Shown here in pieces: positions 2,006 through 64,000 of a stretch of 64,000 nucleotides of DNA. Origin of the DNA: Escherichia coli (GTDB lineage Bacteria > Pseudomonadota > Gammaproteobacteria > Enterobacterales > Enterobacteriaceae); assembly GCF_044324785.1 (NCBI RefSeq), contig NZ_CP172127.1. One strand, 5' to 3'. The notes under the pieces were generated by a model. The model ran no database searches and had not been told where the DNA came from. It saw nothing but the letters and a program-made list of their open reading frames with translations. The position numbers were made by a program, and so were the translations under genes. Numbering within the stretch: position 1 is the stretch's first letter; every line of letters begins with the position of its first letter.

Positions 2006-2019
2006 TAAAACGTGAACGA

Positions 2020-2042
2020 CAGGGCAGAAATTTCCTGCCCTG
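2020..2042 (+). terminator. Hairpin 15 nt after fruA stop (8-bp stem cagggcag/ctgccctg, 7-nt loop), weak U-tract
   Basis: Inverted repeat read directly; followed by tatcattt. Confidence 0.4.
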
Positions 2043-2159
2043 TATCATTTGAAGATCGCAAGGTGACTGACTAGTTCTTGAGGGTAACTATATGAATTTT
2101 ATGTTTTTATCTTTAAGTTGAAACCAGAAATCTCATCAAACGTTAATGTTATTTCCTCA

Positions 2160-2187
2160 AGGGCAGATTATTTTCTGCCCTTTTTTA
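2160..2187 (+). terminator. Rho-independent terminator (stem agggcaga/tctgccct followed by TTTTTT)
   Basis: GC-rich 8-bp stem plus 6-T run read directly; stem sequence nearly identical to the hairpin at 2020-2042. Confidence 0.6.
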
Positions 2188-2323
2188 TTGTTCCTGTTCT
2201 GTGCATCCCGTCACAAATTCCCCGTTTTTATAATTCAGGCATTTAATCGCGTTTTGTGAGCCTGCTCAAATCTGCCCATTTTGCCTCTCTGGCGGTAATT
2301 TACTTTACGTAAAACATGCATAC

Positions 2324-2359
2324 TATGAGCACATGTTTAAATATGAACACATGTTTAAA
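2324..2359. repeat. Tandem 18-bp direct repeat (tatgaGcacatgtttaaa / tatgaAcacatgtttaaa) about 70 bp upstream of psuK
   Basis: 17/18 identical adjacent copies, each containing the palindrome ACATGT; candidate regulator binding sites in the psuK promoter. Confidence 0.7.
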
Positions 2360-2426
2360 CCGTCTTTGCAGTATCAATATTCTTGTGGATTGACAGGGTT
2401 GGTAATTTTTTACCAGAGGACGTGCT

Positions 2427-3368
2427 ATGCGCGAAAAGGATTATGTCGTAATTATAGGTTCGGCGAATATTGATGTCGCCGGATATTCACATGAATCATT
2501 AAATTATGCGGATTCAAATCCAGGTAAAATAAAATTTACGCCTGGTGGAGTCGGGCGCAATATTGCACAAAACCTGGCGTTGCTGGGGAACAAAGCCTGG
2601 CTACTGAGCGCCGTAGGCAGTGATTTTTATGGTCAATCGCTGCTAACGCAAACCAATCAATCTGGCGTTTATGTCGATAAATGCCTGATAGTGCCGGGAG
2701 AAAATACGTCAAGCTATTTATCATTACTCGATAATACCGGTGAAATGCTGGTTGCTATAAATGACATGAATATTAGCAACGCTATTACAGCTGAATATCT
2801 CGCACAGCACCGTGAATTTATTCAGAGGGCAAAGGTCATTGTCGCAGACTGTAATATCAGTGAAGAGGCACTGGCATGGATTCTGGATAATGCCGCCAAC
2901 GTACCTGTATTTGTCGATCCTGTTTCCGCGTGGAAATGTGTCAAAGTGCGCGACCGTCTAAATCAAATCCACACTCTCAAGCCAAACCGCCTTGAAGCGG
3001 AAACCCTGAGTGGGATTGCGCTGTCAGGGCGTGAAGATGTGGCAAAAGTTGCTGCCTGGTTCCATCAACATGGCCTGAACCGACTGGTATTGAGCATGGG
3101 CGGCGACGGCGTTTATTACAGCGATATCAGCGGTGAAAGTGGCTGGTCTGCGCCGATCAAAACCAATGTTATTAATGTTACCGGAGCGGGCGATGCCATG
3201 ATGGCGGGGCTTGCTTCGTGTTGGGTAGACGGAATGCCGTTTGCCGAATCTGTTCGTTTCGCACAGGGATGTTCGTCAATGGCGCTCTCCTGTGAATACA
3301 CCAATAACCCCGATTTATCGATTGCCAACGTTATATCGTTAGTGGAGAACGCAGAATGTCTGAATTAA
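2427..3368 (+). CDS. psuK: Pseudouridine kinase (PfkB family)
   Basis: 313 aa; GAGDAMMAG PfkB signature; SD agagga; position and length as K-12 PsuK (YeiC). Confidence 0.9.
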   Translation: MREKDYVVIIGSANIDVAGYSHESLNYADSNPGKIKFTPGGVGRNIAQNLALLGNKAWLLSAVGSDFYGQSLLTQTNQSGVYVDKCLIVPGENTSSYLSLLDNTGEMLVAINDMNISNAITAEYLAQHREFIQRAKVIVADCNISEEALAWILDNAANVPVFVDPVSAWKCVKVRDRLNQIHTLKPNRLEAETLSGIALSGREDVAKVAAWFHQHGLNRLVLSMGGDGVYYSDISGESGWSAPIKTNVINVTGAGDAMMAGLASCWVDGMPFAESVRFAQGCSSMALSCEYTNNPDLSIANVISLVENAECLN

Positions 3369-4294
3369 AAATTTCCCCTGAATTATTACAAATTTCCCCA
3401 GAAGTGCAGGACGCTTTAAAAAACAAAAAACCGATCGTGGCGCTGGAATCGACCATTATTTCTCACGGGATGCCGTTCCCACAAAATGCCCAGACCGCAA
3501 TTGAAGTTGAAGAAACTATTCGTAAACAGGGCGCGGTACCTGCCACTATCGCCATTATTGGCGGCGTGATGAAAGTGGGTTTAAGCAAAGAAGAAATTGA
3601 ATTGCTGGGTCGTGAAGGGCATAACGTGACCAAAGTTAGTCGTCGCGATTTACCTTTTGTTGTTGCCGCAGGGAAAAATGGCGCAACCACCGTTGCTTCA
3701 ACGATGATTATTGCGGCGCTTGCCGGAATTAGAGTATTTGCCACCGGGGGAATTGGTGGTGTGCATCGCGGGGCGGAACATACCTTCGATATTTCTGCCG
3801 ATTTGCAAGAGCTGGCAAATACTAATGTCACCGTTGTTTGTGCCGGGGCGAAATCTATTCTCGATTTAGGATTAACCACTGAGTATTTAGAAACTTTCGG
3901 TGTACCGCTAATTGGCTATCAGACCAAAGCGCTGCCTGCGTTTTTCTGCCGTACCAGCCCGTTTGACGTCAGCATTCGTCTCGACAGCGCCAGTGAAATT
4001 GCCCGTGCAATGGCGGTGAAATGGCAAAGCGGGCTGAACGGTGGCCTCGTGGTAGCGAACCCGATCCCGGAACAGTTTGCGATGCCGGAGGAATCTATCA
4101 ATGCAGCCATAGATCAAGCCGTCGCCGAAGCCGAAGAGCAGGGCGTTATTGGTAAAGAAAGCACACCGTTCCTGCTGGCTCGTGTTGCTGAACTGACTGG
4201 CGGTGACAGCCTGAAATCCAACATCCAGCTGGTGTTCAACAACGCCATTCTGGCGAGCGAAATTGCCAAAGAATATCAGCGTCTCGCGGGTTAA
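3356..4294 (+). CDS. psuG: Pseudouridine-5'-phosphate glycosidase
   Basis: 312 aa, overlaps psuK stop by 13 nt (translational coupling); length and position as K-12 PsuG (YeiN). Confidence 0.9.
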   Translation: MSELKISPELLQISPEVQDALKNKKPIVALESTIISHGMPFPQNAQTAIEVEETIRKQGAVPATIAIIGGVMKVGLSKEEIELLGREGHNVTKVSRRDLPFVVAAGKNGATTVASTMIIAALAGIRVFATGGIGGVHRGAEHTFDISADLQELANTNVTVVCAGAKSILDLGLTTEYLETFGVPLIGYQTKALPAFFCRTSPFDVSIRLDSASEIARAMAVKWQSGLNGGLVVANPIPEQFAMPEESINAAIDQAVAEAEEQGVIGKESTPFLLARVAELTGGDSLKSNIQLVFNNAILASEIAKEYQRLAG

Positions 4295-4321
4295 TTTCTG
4301 ACGGGCAGAAAGCCGTCGCCC
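4294..4321 (+). promoter_or_regulatory. Conserved 28-nt leader element (atttctgaCgggcagaaagccgtcgccc) with 5-bp stem hairpin, upstream of psuT
   Basis: 27/28 identical to the element at 7522-7549 upstream of the paralog nupX. Confidence 0.5.
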
Positions 4322-4387
4322 GTACTCATCAAGCATACCAAAACCTGGCGCTGACGCCGGGTTTACTGGCATGAAGGGAAAATCATT

Positions 4388-5638
4388 ATGGATATAATGA
4401 GAAGTGTTGTGGGGATGGTGGTGTTACTGGCAATAGCATTTCTGTTGTCAGTGAATAAAAAGAGCATCAGTTTGCGCACGGTTGGAGCCGCACTGCTGCT
4501 GCAAATTGCCATTGGTGGCATCATGCTCTATTTTCCGCCGGGAAAATGGGCAGTAGAACAGGCGGCATTAGGCGTTCATAAAGTGATGTCTTACAGTGAT
4601 GCCGGTAGCGCCTTCATTTTTGGTTCGCTGGTCGGGCCGAAAATGGATGTCCTCTTTGACGGTGCGGGTTTTATCTTTGCCTTTCGCGTACTCCCGGCGA
4701 TTATCTTCGTCACTGCGCTCATCAGCCTGCTGTACTACATTGGCGTGATGGGGCTGCTAATCCGCATTCTTGGCAGTATTTTTCAGAAAGCCCTCAACAT
4801 CAGCAAAATCGAATCTTTTGTTGCGGTTACTACTATTTTCCTCGGGCAAAATGAGATCCCGGCGATCGTAAAACCGTTTATCGATCGCATGAATCGCAAC
4901 GAGCTATTTACGGCAATTTGTAGCGGGATGGCGTCCATTGCCGGTTCGATGATGATTGGTTATGCCGGAATGGGCGTACCAATTGACTACCTGTTAGCGG
5001 CATCGCTGATGGCGATCCCTGGTGGTATTTTGTTTGCACGTATTCTTAGCCCAGCCACCGAGCCTTCGCAGGTGACATTTGAAAATCTGTCGTTCAGCGA
5101 AACGCCGCCAAAAAGCTTTATCGAAGCAGCGGCGAGCGGTGCGATGACCGGGTTGAAAATCGCCGCTGGTGTGGCGACGGTGGTAATGGCGTTTGTCGCA
5201 ATTATTGCGCTGATCAACGGTATTATCGGCGGAATTGGCGGCTGGTTTGGTTTTGCCAATGCCTCTCTGGAAAGTATTTTTGGCTATGTGCTGGCACCGC
5301 TGGCGTGGATCATGGGTGTGGACTGGAGTGATGCCAACCTGGCGGGTAGCCTGATTGGGCAGAAACTGGCGATTAACGAATTCGTCGCTTACCTGAGTTT
5401 CTCCCCATACCTGCAAACGGGCGGCACGCTGGAAGTGAAAACCATTGCGATTATCTCCTTTGCGCTTTGTGGTTTTGCTAACTTTGGTTCTATCGGTGTT
5501 GTCGTTGGCGCATTTTCGGCTATTTCGCCAAAACGCGCACCGGAAATCGCCCAGCTTGGTTTACGGGCGCTGGCAGCTGCCACGCTTTCCAACCTGATGA
5601 GCGCGACTATTGCCGGGTTCTTTATTGGTTTAGCTTGA
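4388..5638 (+). CDS. psuT: NupC-family nucleoside (pseudouridine) transporter
   Basis: 416 aa polytopic membrane protein, about 85 percent identical by eye to the nupX product in this window; length as K-12 PsuT (YeiM). Confidence 0.9.
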   Translation: MDIMRSVVGMVVLLAIAFLLSVNKKSISLRTVGAALLLQIAIGGIMLYFPPGKWAVEQAALGVHKVMSYSDAGSAFIFGSLVGPKMDVLFDGAGFIFAFRVLPAIIFVTALISLLYYIGVMGLLIRILGSIFQKALNISKIESFVAVTTIFLGQNEIPAIVKPFIDRMNRNELFTAICSGMASIAGSMMIGYAGMGVPIDYLLAASLMAIPGGILFARILSPATEPSQVTFENLSFSETPPKSFIEAAASGAMTGLKIAAGVATVVMAFVAIIALINGIIGGIGGWFGFANASLESIFGYVLAPLAWIMGVDWSDANLAGSLIGQKLAINEFVAYLSFSPYLQTGGTLEVKTIAIISFALCGFANFGSIGVVVGAFSAISPKRAPEIAQLGLRALAAATLSNLMSATIAGFFIGLA

Positions 5639-5705
5639 GTTTCATTGCCGGAGGTACGCGCTTATTAAATGTTGCATCCGGCAATCGCGCTATTGCAAAT
5701 AATTT

Positions 5706-6365
5706 TTACTGCATCATCCCGGAGAATTTATTCTCCGGGTCCATCTCCAGTGCCAGTCCTGACAACTGCTTTCTGTTTTTAATTAGATACCCTTTCTTGC
5801 TTTTAATTAATAAACCGTCGTGAATGAATTGCGCGAGAACATATAAAAGATGTCGATAAGAAACGCCTAAATACTCTGCCGCTTGCGTATGCTTTTCGTG
5901 ATAAAGATCACCTTCCTGCGAGAGTAATATAAAAGCTGCCAGGCGATTCACTAATGGAAATGATTGATTCTGAGTTAAAGAAACAATATTACGATAATTT
6001 TTATGACTTAAGGTGACGCAGAGTTTTCGTAAAAATAGCGTGTCGTTTAATAACAGCGGGCGGTAATGTTTCATAGGGAGCGCAAGGCACCAACACTCTT
6101 CAATAGCCTGCACCGCACGCGGTTCATGGTCTTTGTCGATTAACTCAATCTCGCCAATAAAACAGGGGGCGGCAAAGAAATCGATCAGCGACACGCGACC
6201 ATTAGCTAGCGTGGCGTAAAGCCTGGCGCGGCCTCGCGTCAGGTAAAACAGCCAGGACGGCTGTTGCCCTTCCTGCACAATGTAGTCACGCGCTAAAAAA
6301 TGAAACAGCCGCGTATCGGCTGAAACATCCGTTGAAAAGCAATCCTTAAACGCGGATTCACTCAT
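5706..6365 (-). CDS. yeiL: CRP/FNR-family transcriptional regulator
   Basis: ORF-track 232-aa frame begins at GTG; internal ATG at 6365 gives 219 aa (MSESAFKD...) matching the K-12 YeiL length; cNMP-binding-like fold plus C-terminal HTH. Confidence 0.85.
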
Positions 6366-6418
6366 CAATTGCTGCTTAAGATCATTATTGTGGATTTCTT
6401 TCACGATGTTTATCCGCT

Positions 6419-6432
6419 ATGAGATTTCTCAT
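6419..6432. promoter_or_regulatory. Perfect palindrome ATGAGA-TT-TCTCAT in the yeiL/rihB divergent promoter region
   Basis: Read directly; 54 bp upstream of the yeiL start, 102 bp upstream of the rihB start. Confidence 0.3.
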
Positions 6433-6533
6433 ATTTAGCATACGTACGCTGTTGTTAAGATTCAATCATCGGCCCGGTCGAATTTTCTTTGCTGTAGAAA
6501 AAATAACGCAACTGGAAACAGAGGAAATAAACA

Positions 6534-7475
6534 ATGGAAAAGAGAAAAATTATTCTGGATTGTGATCCGGGTCATGATGATGCTATTGCAATGATGATGG
6601 CAGCGAAACATCCGGCGATTGATTTATTAGGTATCACCATTGTAGCGGGTAATCAGACGCTTGATAAAACATTAATTAATGGCCTGAATGTTTGCCAGAA
6701 ACTGGAGATTAATGTTCCGGTTTATGCGGGGATGCCACAGCCCATTATGCGGCAACAAATTGTTGCCGATAATATTCACGGTGAAACCGGACTGGATGGC
6801 CCGGTATTCGAGCCGCTGACCCGCCAGGCAGAAAGCACTCATGCGGTGAAATATATCATCGATACCCTGATGGCAAGCGATGGCGATATCACTCTGGTGC
6901 CGGTTGGTCCGCTTTCAAATATCGCGGTGGCAATGCGTATGCAACCCGCGATCCTGCCCAAAATCCGTGAAATTGTGCTAATGGGCGGCGCTTACGGTAC
7001 AGGCAACTTCACCCCATCTGCCGAGTTCAACATCTTTGCCGACCCGGAAGCCGCACGCGTGGTGTTCACCTCCGGCGTTCCGTTGGTGATGATGGGCCTC
7101 GATCTCACCAACCAGACTGTTTGCACCCCGGACGTGATTGCCCGGATGGAAAGGGTAGGCGGCCCCGCCGGAGAGCTGTTCAGCGACATCATGAATTTCA
7201 CTCTAAAAACGCAGTTCGAAAACTACGGCCTGGCTGGCGGCCCGGTGCATGACGCCACCTGCATCGGTTATCTGATTAACCCTGATGGCATTAAAACCCA
7301 GGAGATGTACGTCGAAGTGGACGTTAACAGCGGCCCTTGCTACGGGCGTACGGTCTGCGACGAGCTGGGCGTTCTTGGCAAGCCCGCCAATACCAAAGTC
7401 GGCATCACTATTGATACCGACTGGTTCTGGGGATTAGTCGAAGAGTGCGTGCGCGGCTACATCAAAACCCATTAA
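6534..7475 (+). CDS. rihB: Pyrimidine-specific ribonucleoside hydrolase
   Basis: 313 aa; N-terminal DCDPGHDD nucleoside-hydrolase motif. Confidence 0.9.
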
Positions 7476-7521
7476 GTGTTGATAACAAGCCGGATCAGTG
7501 TCGCAAGATGCAGGCCCGGCT

Positions 7522-7549
7522 ATTTCTGATGGGCAGAAAGCCGTCGCCC
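7522..7549 (+). promoter_or_regulatory. Conserved 28-nt leader element (atttctgaTgggcagaaagccgtcgccc) upstream of nupX
   Basis: Near-identical copy of 4294-4321; the C-to-T change keeps the stem as a G-U pair. Confidence 0.5.
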
Positions 7550-7574
7550 AAAATGACATGAAGAGATAATAACT

Positions 7575-8825
7575 ATGGATGTCATGAGAAGTGTTCTGGG
7601 AATGGTGGTATTGCTGGCAATTGCGTTTTTGCTGTCAGTAAACAAGAAGAAGATCAGCCTGCGTACCGTTGGCGCGGCGTTAGTGTTACAGGTCGTGATT
7701 GGCGGCATTATGCTTTGGTTACCGCCAGGGCGTTGGGTCGCAGAAAAAGTCGCTTTTGGCGTGCATAAAGTGATGGCGTACAGCGACGCGGGTAGCGCAT
7801 TTATCTTTGGTTCTCTGGTCGGACCGAAAATGGACACCTTATTTGATGGCGCAGGATTTATCTTTGGCTTCAGGGTATTACCGGCAATTATCTTCGTTAC
7901 AGCACTGGTGAGTATTCTCTACTACATCGGTGTGATGGGGATCTTAATTCGAATTCTCGGCGGTATATTCCAGAAAGCATTGAATATCAGCAAGATCGAG
8001 TCATTCGTCGCGGTTACTACCATTTTCCTCGGGCAAAACGAAATTCCGGCAATCGTCAAACCCTTTATCGATCGTCTGAATCGCAATGAATTATTTACAG
8101 CGATTTGTAGTGGCATGGCCTCGATTGCTGGTTCGACAATGATTGGTTATGCCGCTCTGGGCGTGCCTGTGGAATATCTGCTGGCGGCATCGTTAATGGC
8201 GATCCCCGGCGGGATCTTGTTTGCCCGCCTGTTAAGCCCGGCTACCGAATCTTCGCAGGTTTCCTTTAATAACCTCTCTTTCACCGAAACACCGCCAAAA
8301 AGCATTATTGAAGCCGCCGCTACAGGGGCAATGACCGGGCTGAAAATCGCAGCAGGTGTGGCGACAGTGGTGATGGCATTTGTTGCCATCATTGCGTTGA
8401 TTAACGGAATTATCGGCGGCGTTGGCGGCTGGTTTGGTTTTGAACATGCCTCGCTGGAGTCAATTTTAGGTTATCTGTTGGCTCCACTGGCGTGGGTGAT
8501 GGGGGTTGACTGGAGTGATGCGAATCTTGCCGGGAGTTTGATTGGACAGAAACTGGCGATTAATGAATTTGTCGCTTACCTCAATTTCTCACCTTATCTG
8601 CAAACAGCTGGCACTCTGGATGCTAAAACCGTGGCGATTATTTCTTTCGCGTTGTGCGGTTTCGCTAACTTTGGTTCTATCGGGGTGGTGGTTGGCGCAT
8701 TTTCTGCGGTTGCGCCACACCGTGCACCGGAAATCGCCCAGCTTGGTTTACGCGCGCTGGCGGCGGCGACACTTTCTAACCTGATGAGTGCCACCATTGC
8801 AGGATTCTTTATTGGCTTAGCGTAG
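7575..8825 (+). CDS. nupX: NupC-family nucleoside transporter
   Basis: 416 aa, paralog of psuT. Confidence 0.9.
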   Translation: MDVMRSVLGMVVLLAIAFLLSVNKKKISLRTVGAALVLQVVIGGIMLWLPPGRWVAEKVAFGVHKVMAYSDAGSAFIFGSLVGPKMDTLFDGAGFIFGFRVLPAIIFVTALVSILYYIGVMGILIRILGGIFQKALNISKIESFVAVTTIFLGQNEIPAIVKPFIDRLNRNELFTAICSGMASIAGSTMIGYAALGVPVEYLLAASLMAIPGGILFARLLSPATESSQVSFNNLSFTETPPKSIIEAAATGAMTGLKIAAGVATVVMAFVAIIALINGIIGGVGGWFGFEHASLESILGYLLAPLAWVMGVDWSDANLAGSLIGQKLAINEFVAYLNFSPYLQTAGTLDAKTVAIISFALCGFANFGSIGVVVGAFSAVAPHRAPEIAQLGLRALAAATLSNLMSATIAGFFIGLA

Positions 8826-8838
8826 TGCGCGAGTTATG

Positions 8839-8872
8839 AGCCGGATAAGACGCGGTCAAGCGTCGAATCCGG
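8839..8872. repeat. Degenerate REP-like palindromic element between convergent nupX and yeiI
   Basis: gccggataagacgcg...gcgtcgaatccggc, resembles the E. coli REP consensus. Confidence 0.4.
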
Positions 8873-8880
8873 CAACATTG

Positions 8881-9969
8881 TTACACCATCGGCACTAATG
8901 AAAGCGCGTTTTCGGCAGACAGGGTAGGGTTGTTTAAGCTGCCGCTGGCGCGTGAAATTGCCGCGCAGGCCATCGCAAAACGGGCGCTGTCACGGAAATT
9001 GTTTCCCTCCAGAAAGCTATATACCAGGCCCGCCATAAAACCATCGTCAGCACCAAAACTGTCTACTGTCGTATGCGCTGGCGCTGTCAGCAAAAATTGT
9101 TCTCCATCCTTTTCGCTGCAATAAACTGACTCATCGGGCAAATAAACAAACAGTTGCTGAACACCTTGCTGATGCAACGTATTCACTGCGGCATTACGGT
9201 CAGCATCGCTGGTGATCGCCTGTCCCCATAAAATTTCCAGCTCCGGTAAAGTGGGTTTCAGGGTGTGAATATGCGCCAGCCAGTGTTTGATTTTGCCCGC
9301 TTTGAATTCTGAAACGGTATCGACAAACACCGGGATTTCATCAGCGAGGGTAAAGACCCACTCCAGCGCCTCGGCTGTCAGGTTGCAATCAGCAAGTACC
9401 ACGCCCGCATGACGAAGTAAATCGCGCGACCCGTTCAGTAGTTGCGGTGTCAACTGATCCAGCAGATGGGTATCGTTAATCGCCAGCACGGTTTGATCGT
9501 CTCGATTGGCAATTGCCAGATACGTCGATGTGCTTTGACCATGTAAACGAACGCAGCCGGAGACATTCACGCCGGCGCGGCGCGTTTCTTCCAGGAGCAT
9601 TTCGCCATAAAAGTCATCGCCAATCACTGAAAGCAAATGGACGTCGCGGCCTAACAGCGCCAAATTGTGGGCGATATTGCGCCCCACGCCGCCCGCCGAG
9701 CAATGAATTGTACCGGGATGAGAAGCCGCTTGCGGGTAACGGATATCCGCCATCCCGCGAATATCCATATTGATTGTCCCCACCACTACGCAGTATTCCT
9801 GCTCGGTGAGAATGTAACCTTTGCCTTTAATTCGACCTTTGCGCATTAAATCCATAATATGCGCCGCAACGCGCGAACGGCTGATTTGCAGCATATCAGC
9901 AATTTCGTTCTGCTGAATCAGCGGGTTACGCCGTAAAATTGCAAGGATCTCCTTCTCCCGGTTGTTCAT
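8881..9969 (-). CDS. yeiI: HTH-domain fused to PfkB-family (PsuK-like) sugar/nucleoside kinase
   Basis: 362 aa; N-terminal winged-helix segment (EILAILRRNPLIQQNEIADMLQISRSRVAAHI) then kinase domain with GGVGRNIAHNLA motif. Confidence 0.85.
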   Translation of the reverse strand: MNNREKEILAILRRNPLIQQNEIADMLQISRSRVAAHIMDLMRKGRIKGKGYILTEQEYCVVVGTINMDIRGMADIRYPQAASHPGTIHCSAGGVGRNIAHNLALLGRDVHLLSVIGDDFYGEMLLEETRRAGVNVSGCVRLHGQSTSTYLAIANRDDQTVLAINDTHLLDQLTPQLLNGSRDLLRHAGVVLADCNLTAEALEWVFTLADEIPVFVDTVSEFKAGKIKHWLAHIHTLKPTLPELEILWGQAITSDADRNAAVNTLHQQGVQQLFVYLPDESVYCSEKDGEQFLLTAPAHTTVDSFGADDGFMAGLVYSFLEGNNFRDSARFAMACAAISRASGSLNNPTLSAENALSLVPMV

Positions 9970-9971
9970 CT

Positions 9972-10829
9972 TCAGGCTACCGCTTTTTCAGTTTGTTGCG
10001 CTTTCAGCCAGGCGATCTCTTCTGCCCAGATATCCGGGTTGATGGTTTCAAGGATCAGCGGAATGCCGTCGAAACGGTCGTCCTGCATGATCCAGCGGAA
10101 CGCATCATGACCGATATTGCCTTCACCGAGGCTATGATGGCGGTCAACGCGGCTGCCAAAGGTGCTTTTCGCATCGTTAAGGTGCATCCCGCGCAGATAC
10201 TTAAAGCCGACAATACGGGCAAAATCAGCGAACGTTTTCTCGCATTCGGCTGGAGTACGCAAATCATACCCGGCAGCAAAAGCATGGCAGGTATCAATGC
10301 AGACGCCGACGCGGGATTTATCTTCCACGCCGTCGATAATCGCCGCGAGATGTTCGAATTTAAACCCTAAGTTACTGCCCTGACCGGCGGTGTTTTCAAT
10401 CACCGCTGTTACACCTTGAGTTTTATCCAGCGCAATGTTGATGGATTCAGCAATACGCGCAAGGCAATCCTCTTCTGAAATCTGCATCAGATGGCTGCCA
10501 GGGTGGAAGTTGAGCAAAGAAAGCCCCAGCTGTTCGCAACGCTGCATTTCATCTATAAACGCATCGCGCGATTTTTCCAGAGCTTCAGCGACCGGATGTC
10601 CGAGGTTAATCAGATAACTGTCGTGGGGAAGAATTTGCGCCGATGTGTAGTGATATTTTTCACAGGCGGCTTTGAATTCATCGATGGTTTGCGTCGTGAG
10701 CGGTGCGGCACGCCACTGACGTTGGTTTTTGGTGAACAAGGCAAACGCGGTTGCGTCGATTTCGGCGGCGCGAATTGCGGCATTTGCCAGACCGCCAGCA
10801 GCACTAACGTGCGCTCCAATGTATTTCAT
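9972..10829 (-). CDS. nfo: Endonuclease IV (AP endonuclease)
   Basis: 285 aa, length and neighbourhood as K-12 Nfo; TIM-barrel AP endonuclease family. Confidence 0.92.
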
Positions 10830-63090: not shown

Positions 63091-64000
63091 TCACGGCAGG
63101 CGGTGGCGAGCTTGATAATAAGCCTGCCAGTGAGCTTCTTTATGTGTAGCGACACGTTGTTCGAAGTAACGGCGCAGACGTGCGCGATCTTCTTCGTTAT
63201 CTTTGACGATGGTTCCGGCAATACAGTCCACCAGGTCGGCTGGCTCCCCCGCGCGATTCGCTAAAAACCAGGCGCGGACGCCCACAGCGTGGGCCACGTT
63301 CACGGCTTCAGCGGTGGACATAATCGCTGTCAGTGTATCCATTGACGTTTTCTTTTCGCCGTTGGCACGCAGATCGCGGAAGGTGCGTACCAGTAACTCC
63401 AGTACCGCGTCAGGCACTTTATGCGGAATACCGCTATGGGCCAACAAACGCGCCGAAGCACTGGCGACCAGTTCCAGCTCCTGGGCGAAATCCATAATCG
63501 GAAAGACAGTTTCAAAATCGAAGCGACGCTTTAGCGCAGCACTCATTTCATTGACGCCGCGATCGCGGGTATTGGCAGTGGCAATAATATTAAAGCCTTC
63601 CCGCGCATAGAGCTGACTGGCTTCACCAGTGAGTTCCGGCACCGTCATTACCCTGTCAGAAAGCATACCTAACAGACAGTCTTGTACTTCCAGCGGTGTA
63701 CGCGTTATCTCTTCAAAACGGACAATTTTGCCGTCGCGCATTCCCTGGTAAAGCGGGGCAGGGACCAGCGCTTCCGTTGACGGACCATGGTTGATAAGCA
63801 GGGCGTAGTTCCAGCCATACTTGATTTGATCTTCGGTGGTAGATGCGCCGCCCTGGATGGTTAACCCGGCATCGCCGCTAATAGCGGTTGCCAGTAATTC
63901 AGACAGGAGAGATTTTGCGGTGCCAGGTTCCCCCACCAACATCAAACCGCGCCCGGTAGCGAGAGTGACTAACATGCGTTCGACAGCGGAGGGACTGATC
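63091..64000 (-). CDS. yehL: MoxR-type AAA+ ATPase, N-terminus truncated by window end
   Basis: Walker A GEPGTAKS; frame stays open to the window edge; stop at 63091-63093. Confidence 0.85.
   Translation of the reverse strand, partial: ISPSAVERMLVTLATGRGLMLVGEPGTAKSLLSELLATAISGDAGLTIQGGASTTEDQIKYGWNYALLINHGPSTEALVPAPLYQGMRDGKIVRFEEITRTPLEVQDCLLGMLSDRVMTVPELTGEASQLYAREGFNIIATANTRDRGVNEMSAALKRRFDFETVFPIMDFAQELELVASASARLLAHSGIPHKVPDAVLELLVRTFRDLRANGEKKTSMDTLTAIMSTAEAVNVAHAVGVRAWFLANRAGEPADLVDCIAGTIVKDNEEDRARLRRYFEQRVATHKEAHWQAYYQARHRLP

Follow-up and report, generated by a model that had tools for sequence, protein, structure and literature searches.

The first 16 kb of the window (the whole 64,000-nucleotide stretch of Escherichia coli DNA analyzed here) correspond to the fruBKA-to-cirA region and contain yeiI (8881-9969, − strand), the gene with which this analysis is concerned, along with two sets of nucleoside genes. 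YeiI joins a winged helix-turn-helix (HTH; codons 1-55, 9805-9969, − strand) to a domain resembling the pseudouridine kinase PsuK, a member of the PfkB family, with a remodeled ATP site (codons 56-362 plus the stop codon, 8881-9804, − strand), and it is argued below that the protein is probably a nucleoside-sensing regulator of the pseudouridine operon psuKGT. That operon lies on the + strand and consists of psuK (2427-3368), encoding a pseudouridine kinase that lacks an HTH and whose GAGD and NxxE motifs are canonical (NCBIfam equivalog NF007355, 716 bits; cut-off, 540), psuG (3356-4294), encoding pseudouridine-5′-phosphate glycosidase (Pfam Indigoidine_A, 442 bits, and annotation), and psuT (4388-5638), encoding a transporter of the CNT family (Pfam and NCBIfam TIGR00804, 518 bits). 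It is followed by yeiL (5706-6404, − strand), a CRP/FNR-type regulator gene divergent from rihB (NF007707, 420 bits; cut-off, 180), in whose product both the cNMP-binding and the Crp-type HTH domains of Pfam were detected, then by the pyrimidine nucleoside hydrolase gene rihB (6534-7475, + strand; NF007417, 727 bits; cut-off, 459) and by nupX (7575-8825, + strand), a paralog of psuT. Beyond yeiI lies nfo (9972-10829, − strand), which encodes endonuclease IV, and then yeiH, yeiE, lysP, and cirA, in that order. Because only 2 nt separate the nfo stop codon from the yeiI start, an nfo-yeiI transcription unit is likely, and this adjacency is kept in seven further loci (L005 to L010 and L091). The gene names agree with the RefSeq annotation of 98%-identical E. 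coli genomes, and the open reading frames lie exactly where an earlier examination of the sequence, made without database searches (the original prediction), had placed them.

In the original prediction, the region was described as a pair of duplicated nucleoside-catabolism modules, each with a glycosidase or hydrolase gene ahead of its transporter gene. The gene order is indeed as described, with psuG before psuT and rihB before nupX, and the two transporters are closely similar members of the NupC type, sharing 368 of 416 residues (88%, rather than the estimated 85%). Both carry Nucleos_tra2_N, Gate, and Nucleos_tra2_C domains and match TIGR00804 at 518 (PsuT) and 500 (NupX) bits against a cut-off of 442. 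The pair is old, with 79% DNA identity, a synonymous divergence (dS) of 1.35, and a nonsynonymous divergence (dN) of 0.076. The PfkB paralogy of PsuK and the C-terminal domain of YeiI was likewise borne out (40% identity over YeiI residues 54 to 359; E value, 7e−78), both proteins matching PF00294 well above its cut-off of 25.8 bits (PsuK, 236 bits; YeiI, 230 bits over residues 58 to 348). However, PsuG (Indigoidine_A) and RihB (IU_nuc_hydro) have unrelated folds, and the kinase-like gene stands outside the rihB cassette. Since only the transporter and kinase-like genes are paralogous, this is not a duplicated module.

The substrate of the rihB-nupX-yeiI module had been taken as undefined, which is outdated for RihB and NupX. 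RihB hydrolyzes uridine with a kcat of ~5 per second and a Km of ~0.14 mM and also acts on cytidine, and structures are available (1Q8F, 3B9X, and 3MKM) (PMC10526354); thymidine, guanosine, and deoxyuridine were added to its substrates in 2026 (PMC13389410). NupX is an inefficient transporter of uridine and cytidine, and in the same study PsuT transported neither of these nor xanthosine (PMC11241209). For YeiI the statement still holds, as it was listed as uncharacterized in 2022 and 2025 (PMC9061257, PMC12506659). The protein (b2160) appears on lists of predicted transcription factors (PMC6055005), and this "sugar kinase" has been mislabeled as pseudouridine kinase by machine-learning tools (PMC6055005, PMC12506659). 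In the literature searched, which did not extend to Preumont et al. 2008, no account was found of HTH-PsuK fusions or the operator associated with them, of any connection between YeiI and psuKGT, of a repressor of psuK, or of the regulation of b2160.

Comparison of gene content across Enterobacteriaceae indicated to which set of genes yeiI belongs. Four versions of the fruA-nfo interval were identified. In Escherichia albertii, Citrobacter, Enterobacter, and Leclercia UBA3338, the interval holds psuKGT and yeiI, with yeiI abutting psuT and no rihB-nupX, while in Leclercia adecarboxylata and Buttiauxella it holds yeiL divergent from rihB-nupX and lacks both psuKGT and yeiI. E. coli has psuKGT, then yeiL-rihB-nupX, then yeiI, and yeiL-rihB was found in 5,418 of 5,426 complete E. 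coli genomes. A Leclercia-like contig (L091) has the reverse arrangement, yeiL-rihB-nupX followed by psuKGT and then yeiI, which still abuts psuT. Throughout, yeiI lies beside nfo and is present with psuKGT and absent without it, and yeiL is the constant divergent neighbor of rihB-nupX. The grouping of yeiI with rihB and nupX in one module, as put forward in the original prediction, is refuted, because yeiI tracks psuKGT and yeiL tracks rihB-nupX; in addition, yeiI is convergent to nupX in E. coli. In the relatives it is convergent to psuT, and no psuG follows it. The window thus contains two independent nucleoside cassettes, one made up of psuK-psuG-psuT and yeiI and the other of yeiL and the divergent rihB-nupX. 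The constancy of yeiL supports its role as the regulator of rihB-nupX, a role already proposed by Anjum et al. 2000, as that work is cited in PMC3590769. The fruA-nfo interval itself behaves as a variable slot (L089, L090, L091, and window positions 2006-9969), which the psu or the rihB cassette may fill alone or the two may share, with either one first.

The winged helix that had been proposed at the N terminus of YeiI was recovered by profile search, with residues 1 to 48 matching HTH_24 (PF13412) at 41.2 bits against a cut-off of 21.9. The lack of such a match had been named in the original prediction as a ground for rejecting it, and this ground therefore falls away. In the AlphaFold model (pLDDT, 88), helices at residues 3 to 14, 20 to 27, and 31 to 43 and a hairpin at 47 to 54 precede the PfkB fold, and the model superimposes on the E. 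coli PsuK structure (EcPUKI; PDB 7vtd) with a TM score of 0.94 (Foldseek). No solved structure combining an HTH with a PfkB domain was found in the structure search. YeiI resembles EcPUKI (PDB 7vkp, 7vtd, and 7vva) in its PfkB fold, 40% identity, catalytic Asp, and all pseudouridine contacts bar Met114; it differs in the extra winged helix, in GADD in place of GAGD and TxxE in place of NxxE, and in the lack of GxxG.

To define these differences, seven proteins of the YeiI clade, six HTH-less PsuK proteins, and 77 HTH-PsuK fusion proteins were aligned, with the 83 non-YeiI sequences serving as the reference set and residues numbered as in PsuK. YeiI deviates at 13 of the 72 columns that are at least 90% conserved among the 83 relatives, with the changes concentrated around the site of ATP binding and phosphoryl transfer. 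In all seven YeiI-clade proteins, N187T turns the KPNxxE motif into KPTLPE, so that NxxE is lost; Asn187 is one of four residues around a putative Mg2+ density in the PsuK crystal (PMC9247573). Both G225 and G228, the glycines of the small ATP-binding loop GxxG (PMC9247573), are gone, and N250D is also among the 13 deviating columns. At position 255, all 83 relatives have Gly and all seven YeiI-clade proteins have Asp, and the anion-hole motif GxGD is replaced by GADD (codons 306-309, 9043-9054, − strand). T252F falls at a less conserved position outside the 13. In contrast to these changes, the residues assigned to pseudouridine contact in PMC9061257 are retained in YeiI (N14, D16, S30, Y97, N112, N143, and K170), the sole alteration being Met114, which lies on one face of the base and is Thr in YeiI. 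Of these, the residues for nucleoside specificity (S30, N143, and K170), together with N14, D16, and Y97, are conserved throughout the YeiI clade. The catalytic Asp256 of EcPUKI is kept as D309 in all seven clade members, and Lys185 is kept as Lys238. In a YeiI-clade protein from outside Enterobacteriaceae (P0059, Affinibrenneria salicis), the motif reads GADE, with the catalytic Asp changed to Glu. On the PsuK equivalog NF007355, YeiI scores 258 bits, below the cut-off of 540, and it has an NCBIfam equivalog of its own, named "sugar kinase" (811 bits). The simplest reading of this pattern would be a nucleoside-binding sensor that no longer transfers phosphate, and the nature of the substitutions tips the balance slightly toward loss of kinase activity. 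YeiI is not decaying: between two E. coli alleles of yeiI with a dS of ~1.0, dN/dS is 0.10 in both domains, and the HTH portion has a dN of 0.05 against a dS of 0.99, which places the protein under purifying selection.

A scan of one genome per species for HTH-PfkB homologs gave 80 loci, all of which were compared with the window proteins. Of the 77 loci outside the YeiI clade, 73 have psuG directly 3′ of the fusion gene, and two of the remaining four break off at contig ends. The gene after psuG encodes a CNT transporter in Yersinia, Hafnia, Serratia, and Pasteurella. Because psuG directly follows in so many loci, the HTH-PfkB fusion is the ordinary pseudouridine kinase in most bacteria with the pathway, and the HTH-less PsuK of E. 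coli is the exception. The fusions, known from Yersinia, Serratia, Pasteurella, Shewanella, Vibrio, Neisseriales-type betaproteobacteria, and many Clostridia, are annotated in the sources as "PfkB family carbohydrate kinase" or "pseudouridine kinase"; they share with YeiI the domain architecture, 41 to 52% identity, the HTH residues invariant across the family, all of which YeiI keeps, and a related palindromic operator described below. They differ in having canonical kinase motifs, in being the first gene of a psu operon, and in having the operator before their own gene. YeiI, unlike them, has altered motifs; its gene lies elsewhere, in the nfo unit, and the operator predicted for it precedes the separate, HTH-less psuK.

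A bootstrapped neighbor-joining tree, based on distances over the PfkB domain, placed the HTH-less PsuK of Enterobacteriaceae with the fusions of Enterobacterales and Pasteurella (bootstrap, 0.94), and YeiI was attached to this group by a long branch (0.92). YeiI and PsuK were never mutual nearest relatives. Judged by these relationships, PsuK is the operon copy, which appears to have lost its HTH, and YeiI is a fast-evolving paralog that has evidently kept it; descent of YeiI from an HTH-PsuK is close to certain. A remnant of the HTH was sought upstream of psuK using tblastn and three-frame translation of positions 2006-2460, and only the start of PsuK itself was identified.

Upstream of the fusion genes of beta- and gammaproteobacteria, two cAAAC-N4-GTTTg palindromes were found, 18 to 19 bp apart from center to center and located between a σ70-like −10 hexamer and the start codon. 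In Paludibacterium, for example, TTGACG-17-TAGTAT is followed by GCAAACAAAAGTTTG. Palindromes that lie over the transcription start are in the typical placement of repressor sites, and it is highly probable that the fusions autoregulate through them. What is conserved in the Yersinia group is the DNA, as shown by Photorhabdus, where a 1-nt indel disrupts the frame upstream, which some annotations include, without loss of the sequence conservation; the same indel rules out a coding extension (MFKNKQVS) as the cause of the conservation. Gene calls in the Yersinia/Serratia group (L002, 8001-8027; P0065 and P0073) start nine codons early, with MFKNKQVS.., and because the frame is broken in Photorhabdus this annotated start is probably wrong and the stretch is conserved operator DNA.

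A 16-nt position weight matrix (PWM) was built from 44 sites in 22 beta- and gammaproteobacterial loci, none of them from Enterobacteriaceae. Its best match in the 64-kb window is at 2343-2358 (ATGAACACATGTTTAA, 16.8 bits), in front of psuK, and its fourth-best match, at 2325-2340 (ATGAGCACATGTTTAA, 10.9 bits), lies exactly 18 bp upstream of the best. Scored as a tandem, the two reach 27.7, compared with a mean of 7.7 (standard deviation, 3.7; maximum, 19.2) in 300 simulated windows and 8.4 for the next-best tandem in the real window. Predicted operator site 1 (2327-2338, + strand, GAGC-ACAT-GTTT) abuts the −10 hexamer and covers the inferred transcription start, and site 2 (2345-2356, + strand, GAAC-ACAT-GTTT) follows at 18 bp. 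The half-sites GA(G/A)C-N4-G(T/C)T(T/C) are kept in E. albertii, Citrobacter, Enterobacter, and Leclercia, and the spacers are free to vary (six genera), as are the flanks of site 1. Among Enterobacteriaceae, the six loci that contain psuKGT and yeiI all have the highest-scoring tandem of the entire locus upstream of psuK; in the two loci without psuKGT and yeiI, no operator tandem was found with the PWM. No PWM match above 6 bits was found upstream of yeiI, nfo, or yeiH, that is, none before the gene for YeiI itself, and the regions upstream of yeiL, rihB, and nupX (5639-5705, 6405-6533, and 7476-7574) gave no operator-like site. Along with the half-site, which changes from AAAC to GA(A/G)C, the recognition helix differs and reads SRSRVAAHIMDL in YeiI and SRSgVAGHIMNL in the fusions. 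Since PsuK lacks a DNA-binding domain and no protein of this family other than YeiI is encoded in the locus, YeiI is the candidate to bind in trans, and binding of YeiI to the psuK operator is probable on these grounds.

Single PWM matches at 63968, 22724, and 62932 (13.0, 11.2, and 9.8 bits) were discarded, since none is paired with a second site and their scores can be reached by chance. With three mismatches allowed, the Yersinia-type pattern AAACAAACNNNTGTTTAANAACAAAC matched nowhere in the window and the broader palindrome model was needed, and a description as AAACA/TGTTT half-sites with alternating 2- and 6-bp spacers was replaced by the 4-N4-4 palindrome as its geometry was inconsistent between E. 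coli and Yersinia. The fusion genes of Aeromonas (L028, L032, L037, L040, L048, and L052) carry a different pattern 20 to 60 nt upstream, GACAAACGTTTGC ... GATGTTTGTC plus GAAAACGTTTTTC, which resembles LacI/PurR-type boxes, and their recognition helix differs too (SRSALASHISSL).

The placement of the promoter to which the predicted operator is joined could be compared with published mutations. From sequence and conservation, the psuK −35 hexamer was assigned to 2299-2304 (+ strand, TTTACT), which is kept in Enterobacteriaceae and the Yersinia group, and the −10 hexamer to 2321-2326 (+ strand, TACTAT), 16 bp after it. An A-to-C change at genome position 2257444, between psuK and fruA, arose in five of seven mouse-gut lines (PMC9509342, Supplementary Data 7 and 8) and likewise in old mice (PMC7518454). 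An A-to-C change in the psuK promoter was reported in three of four long-term stationary-phase populations (PMC7858067), and a psuK-promoter transversion was the sole mutation common to two laboratory-evolved lines (PMC10733421); these last two may be the same single-nucleotide polymorphism (SNP) as that at 2257444. Published coordinates were calibrated on srlR, atoS, and atoC, all of which give an offset of 1978. Position 2257444 is window position 2301, 126 nt upstream of the psuK ATG, where the sense strand changes from TTTACT to TTGACT. The SNP is a textbook −35 up-mutation within the hexamer already assigned here, and therefore the position of the promoter, and hence that of the operator on the transcription start, is supported. 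Further upstream, a CRP-like site (2255-2270, + strand, TGTGAgcctgcTCAAA, TGTGA-N6-TCAAA) is centered ~70 bp before the inferred psuK transcription start and is kept in six Enterobacteriaceae psuK upstream regions and in L091; going by its match to the consensus, it suggests catabolite control of pseudouridine use.

Taken together, YeiI is proposed to be a former kinase that has kept its HTH and its nucleoside pocket and would repress psuKGT rather than rihB-nupX, a reading given a probability of about 0.62 from the sequence comparisons. The ancestral HTH-PsuK most likely repressed its own operon via the two tandem cAAAC-N4-GTTTg operators just past the −10 hexamer. In Enterobacteriaceae the two jobs would then have been split, the operon copy, PsuK, remaining as the kinase without an HTH, and YeiI retaining the HTH and pocket while its ATP, Mg, and phosphoryl-transfer site was remodeled. 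A YeiI dimer bound to the tandem sites (2327-2356), which overlap the psuK transcription start, would block RNA polymerase, and binding of pseudouridine, somewhat more likely than not to be the ligand, may bring about the lid and dimer rearrangement known for PsuK and so release the DNA. The wider generalization, in which HTH-PsuK fusions are widespread, previously undescribed kinase-autorepressors with a two-copy operator that were split into the enzyme PsuK and the pseudokinase sensor-repressor YeiI, is more tentative and is put at somewhat under even odds.

A number of observations weigh against this proposal. The E. coli half-sites GAGC and GAAC depart from the training consensus, and site 1 on its own, at 10.9 bits, is within chance, the simulated single-site maximum having a mean of 13.8. 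Conservation beside the −10 hexamer could partly reflect the promoter, the 5′ leader, or another transcription factor. D309 and Lys238 are retained, so residual or altered kinase activity is possible. Its long branch may have drawn YeiI artificially toward the base of the tree, which makes the timing of the duplication uncertain. The evolution experiments are also relevant here. The repressor genes frlR, srlR, dgoR, and glpR are repeatedly mutated in them (PMC9509342, PMC7518454, PMC7858067), and yet no loss-of-function allele of yeiI was seen in the text and supplements searched (part of the supplements of PMC9509342, with PMC7518454 and PMC7858067). Where psuK expression was raised, the same gain-of-function promoter allele always recurred. 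Because only the promoter SNP recurs, with no yeiI alleles, loss of YeiI alone would not appear to give strong psuK expression; it may not suffice, for example with a weak, CRP-dependent promoter, or the repressor model may be incomplete.

The original prediction had allowed for either a nucleoside-responsive regulator or a regulated kinase. The ligand-sensing architecture stands, and the evidence favors the sensor over the regulated kinase. As an active enzyme, YeiI would be a bifunctional kinase-regulator of a different, possibly modified, nucleoside, much as the ancestral HTH-PsuK presumably was. The catalytic Asp, the equivalent of Lys185, and the ribose contacts would all serve such a protein, M114T and D29A by the base pocket could retune its specificity, the PfkB domain is under strong purifying selection, and the NCBI equivalog is named "sugar kinase." Even so, an active kinase is considered unlikely, as G255D, N187T, and the loss of both GxxG glycines all fall at the phosphoryl-transfer site (PMC9247573), GADE is found in the clade member P0059, and no glycosidase or phosphatase partner is linked to yeiI. 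Nor does YeiI replace PsuK, because a psuK mutant cannot use pseudouridine, as reported in the passage of PMC12506659 that cites Preumont 2008.

It is more unlikely still that the palindromes before psuK are bound by another factor, or are promoter or leader elements, with the HTH of YeiI directed elsewhere or to nothing. The chance level of single-site scores in 64 kb given above, the LacI/PurR-type appearance of the Aeromonas sites in place of an N4-spaced palindrome, and the lack of yeiI mutants in the evolution-experiment material searched would all fit such a reading. What argues against it is the tandem with family-specific 18-bp spacing, which occurs only once in the window and in each of six other loci, and the company that the motif keeps with HTH-PsuK genes across beta- and gammaproteobacteria; moreover, the invariants of the YeiI HTH are kept, with a dN far below dS in that segment, and loci without yeiI and psuKGT lack the operator as well. 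Very improbable, finally, is the view of the original prediction that YeiI is part of a rihB-nupX-yeiI module and regulates, or is coregulated with, rihB-nupX. The adjacency of yeiI and nupX in E. coli and the parallel between the paralogous pairs NupX/PsuT and YeiI/PsuK invited it, but yeiI is convergent to nupX and inside the nfo transcription unit, each of the two occurs without the other (rihB-nupX-yeiL without yeiI in L. adecarboxylata and Buttiauxella; yeiI without rihB-nupX in the four psuKGT-bearing relatives), psuKGT intervenes between them in L091, and the three upstream regions of the rihB cassette hold no operator-like site.

A repressor derived from an enzyme would have known counterparts. 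The ROK repressors Mlc and NagC combine an N-terminal HTH with a sugar-kinase fold that acts as the ligand sensor for catabolic operons, and catalytic paralogs, the ROK sugar kinases, are present in the genome. By analogy, YeiI may be compared with them, although the fold of Mlc and NagC is ROK/ASKHA and that of YeiI is PfkB/ribokinase, so the likeness is one of analogy only. In BirA and NadR, an HTH is joined to an enzyme of the regulated pathway, and both proteins stay catalytically active. This bifunctional state is the likely condition of the ancestral HTH-PsuK, whereas YeiI has apparently ceded catalysis to its paralog.

If YeiI acts as proposed, a function would be supplied for one of the remaining uncharacterized transcription factors of E. 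coli K-12, and the protein would gain a target (psuKGT), an operator of 30 bp, and a candidate ligand, together with an argument at the level of residues that it should not be a kinase. A disabled ATP site would mean that the inducer is sensed and not consumed, and the family would offer an example of a bifunctional enzyme-regulator divided into an enzyme and a pseudoenzyme sensor. The proposal would also explain the repeated selection of psuK promoter-up mutations in the gut, and it gives a reason for the location of the SNP selected repeatedly in mouse-gut, stationary-phase, and laboratory evolution, an up-mutation in the −35 hexamer of a promoter that depends on CRP and is normally kept repressed. 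It is relevant to strains producing pseudouridine for mRNA vaccines, in which psuK, psuG, and psuT are manipulated.

Within E. coli, yeiI is dimorphic, with 3,359 genomes carrying a sequence 95 to 99% identical to that of the window, 2,012 carrying one of ~80% identity, and 48 falling between 60 and 80%. The divergence between the alleles is limited to the yeiI coding sequence (window 8881-9969; L087, 7001-8089), and the adjacent nfo is 98 to 100% identical. The second allele, found for example in HUSEC2011, is nearest to that of E. albertii (91% nucleotide identity); because of this, the K-12/window-type allele is the odd one, and it was perhaps imported from another lineage or represents an old polymorphism. 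Between E. coli strains, nupX (7575-8825 compared with L087 5695-6945) has a proportion of synonymous differences (pS) of 0.18, compared with 0.04 to 0.06 for psuK and nfo, and the recombination tract around yeiI may reach into nupX.

At the other end of the region, the fruA-psuK intergenic sequence contains two similar hairpins of the form GGGCAGA...TCTGCCC, at 2021-2043 and 2162-2190. The latter, with a run of T residues after it, probably serves as the fruBKA terminator, and Enterobacter and Leclercia also have a similar hairpin.

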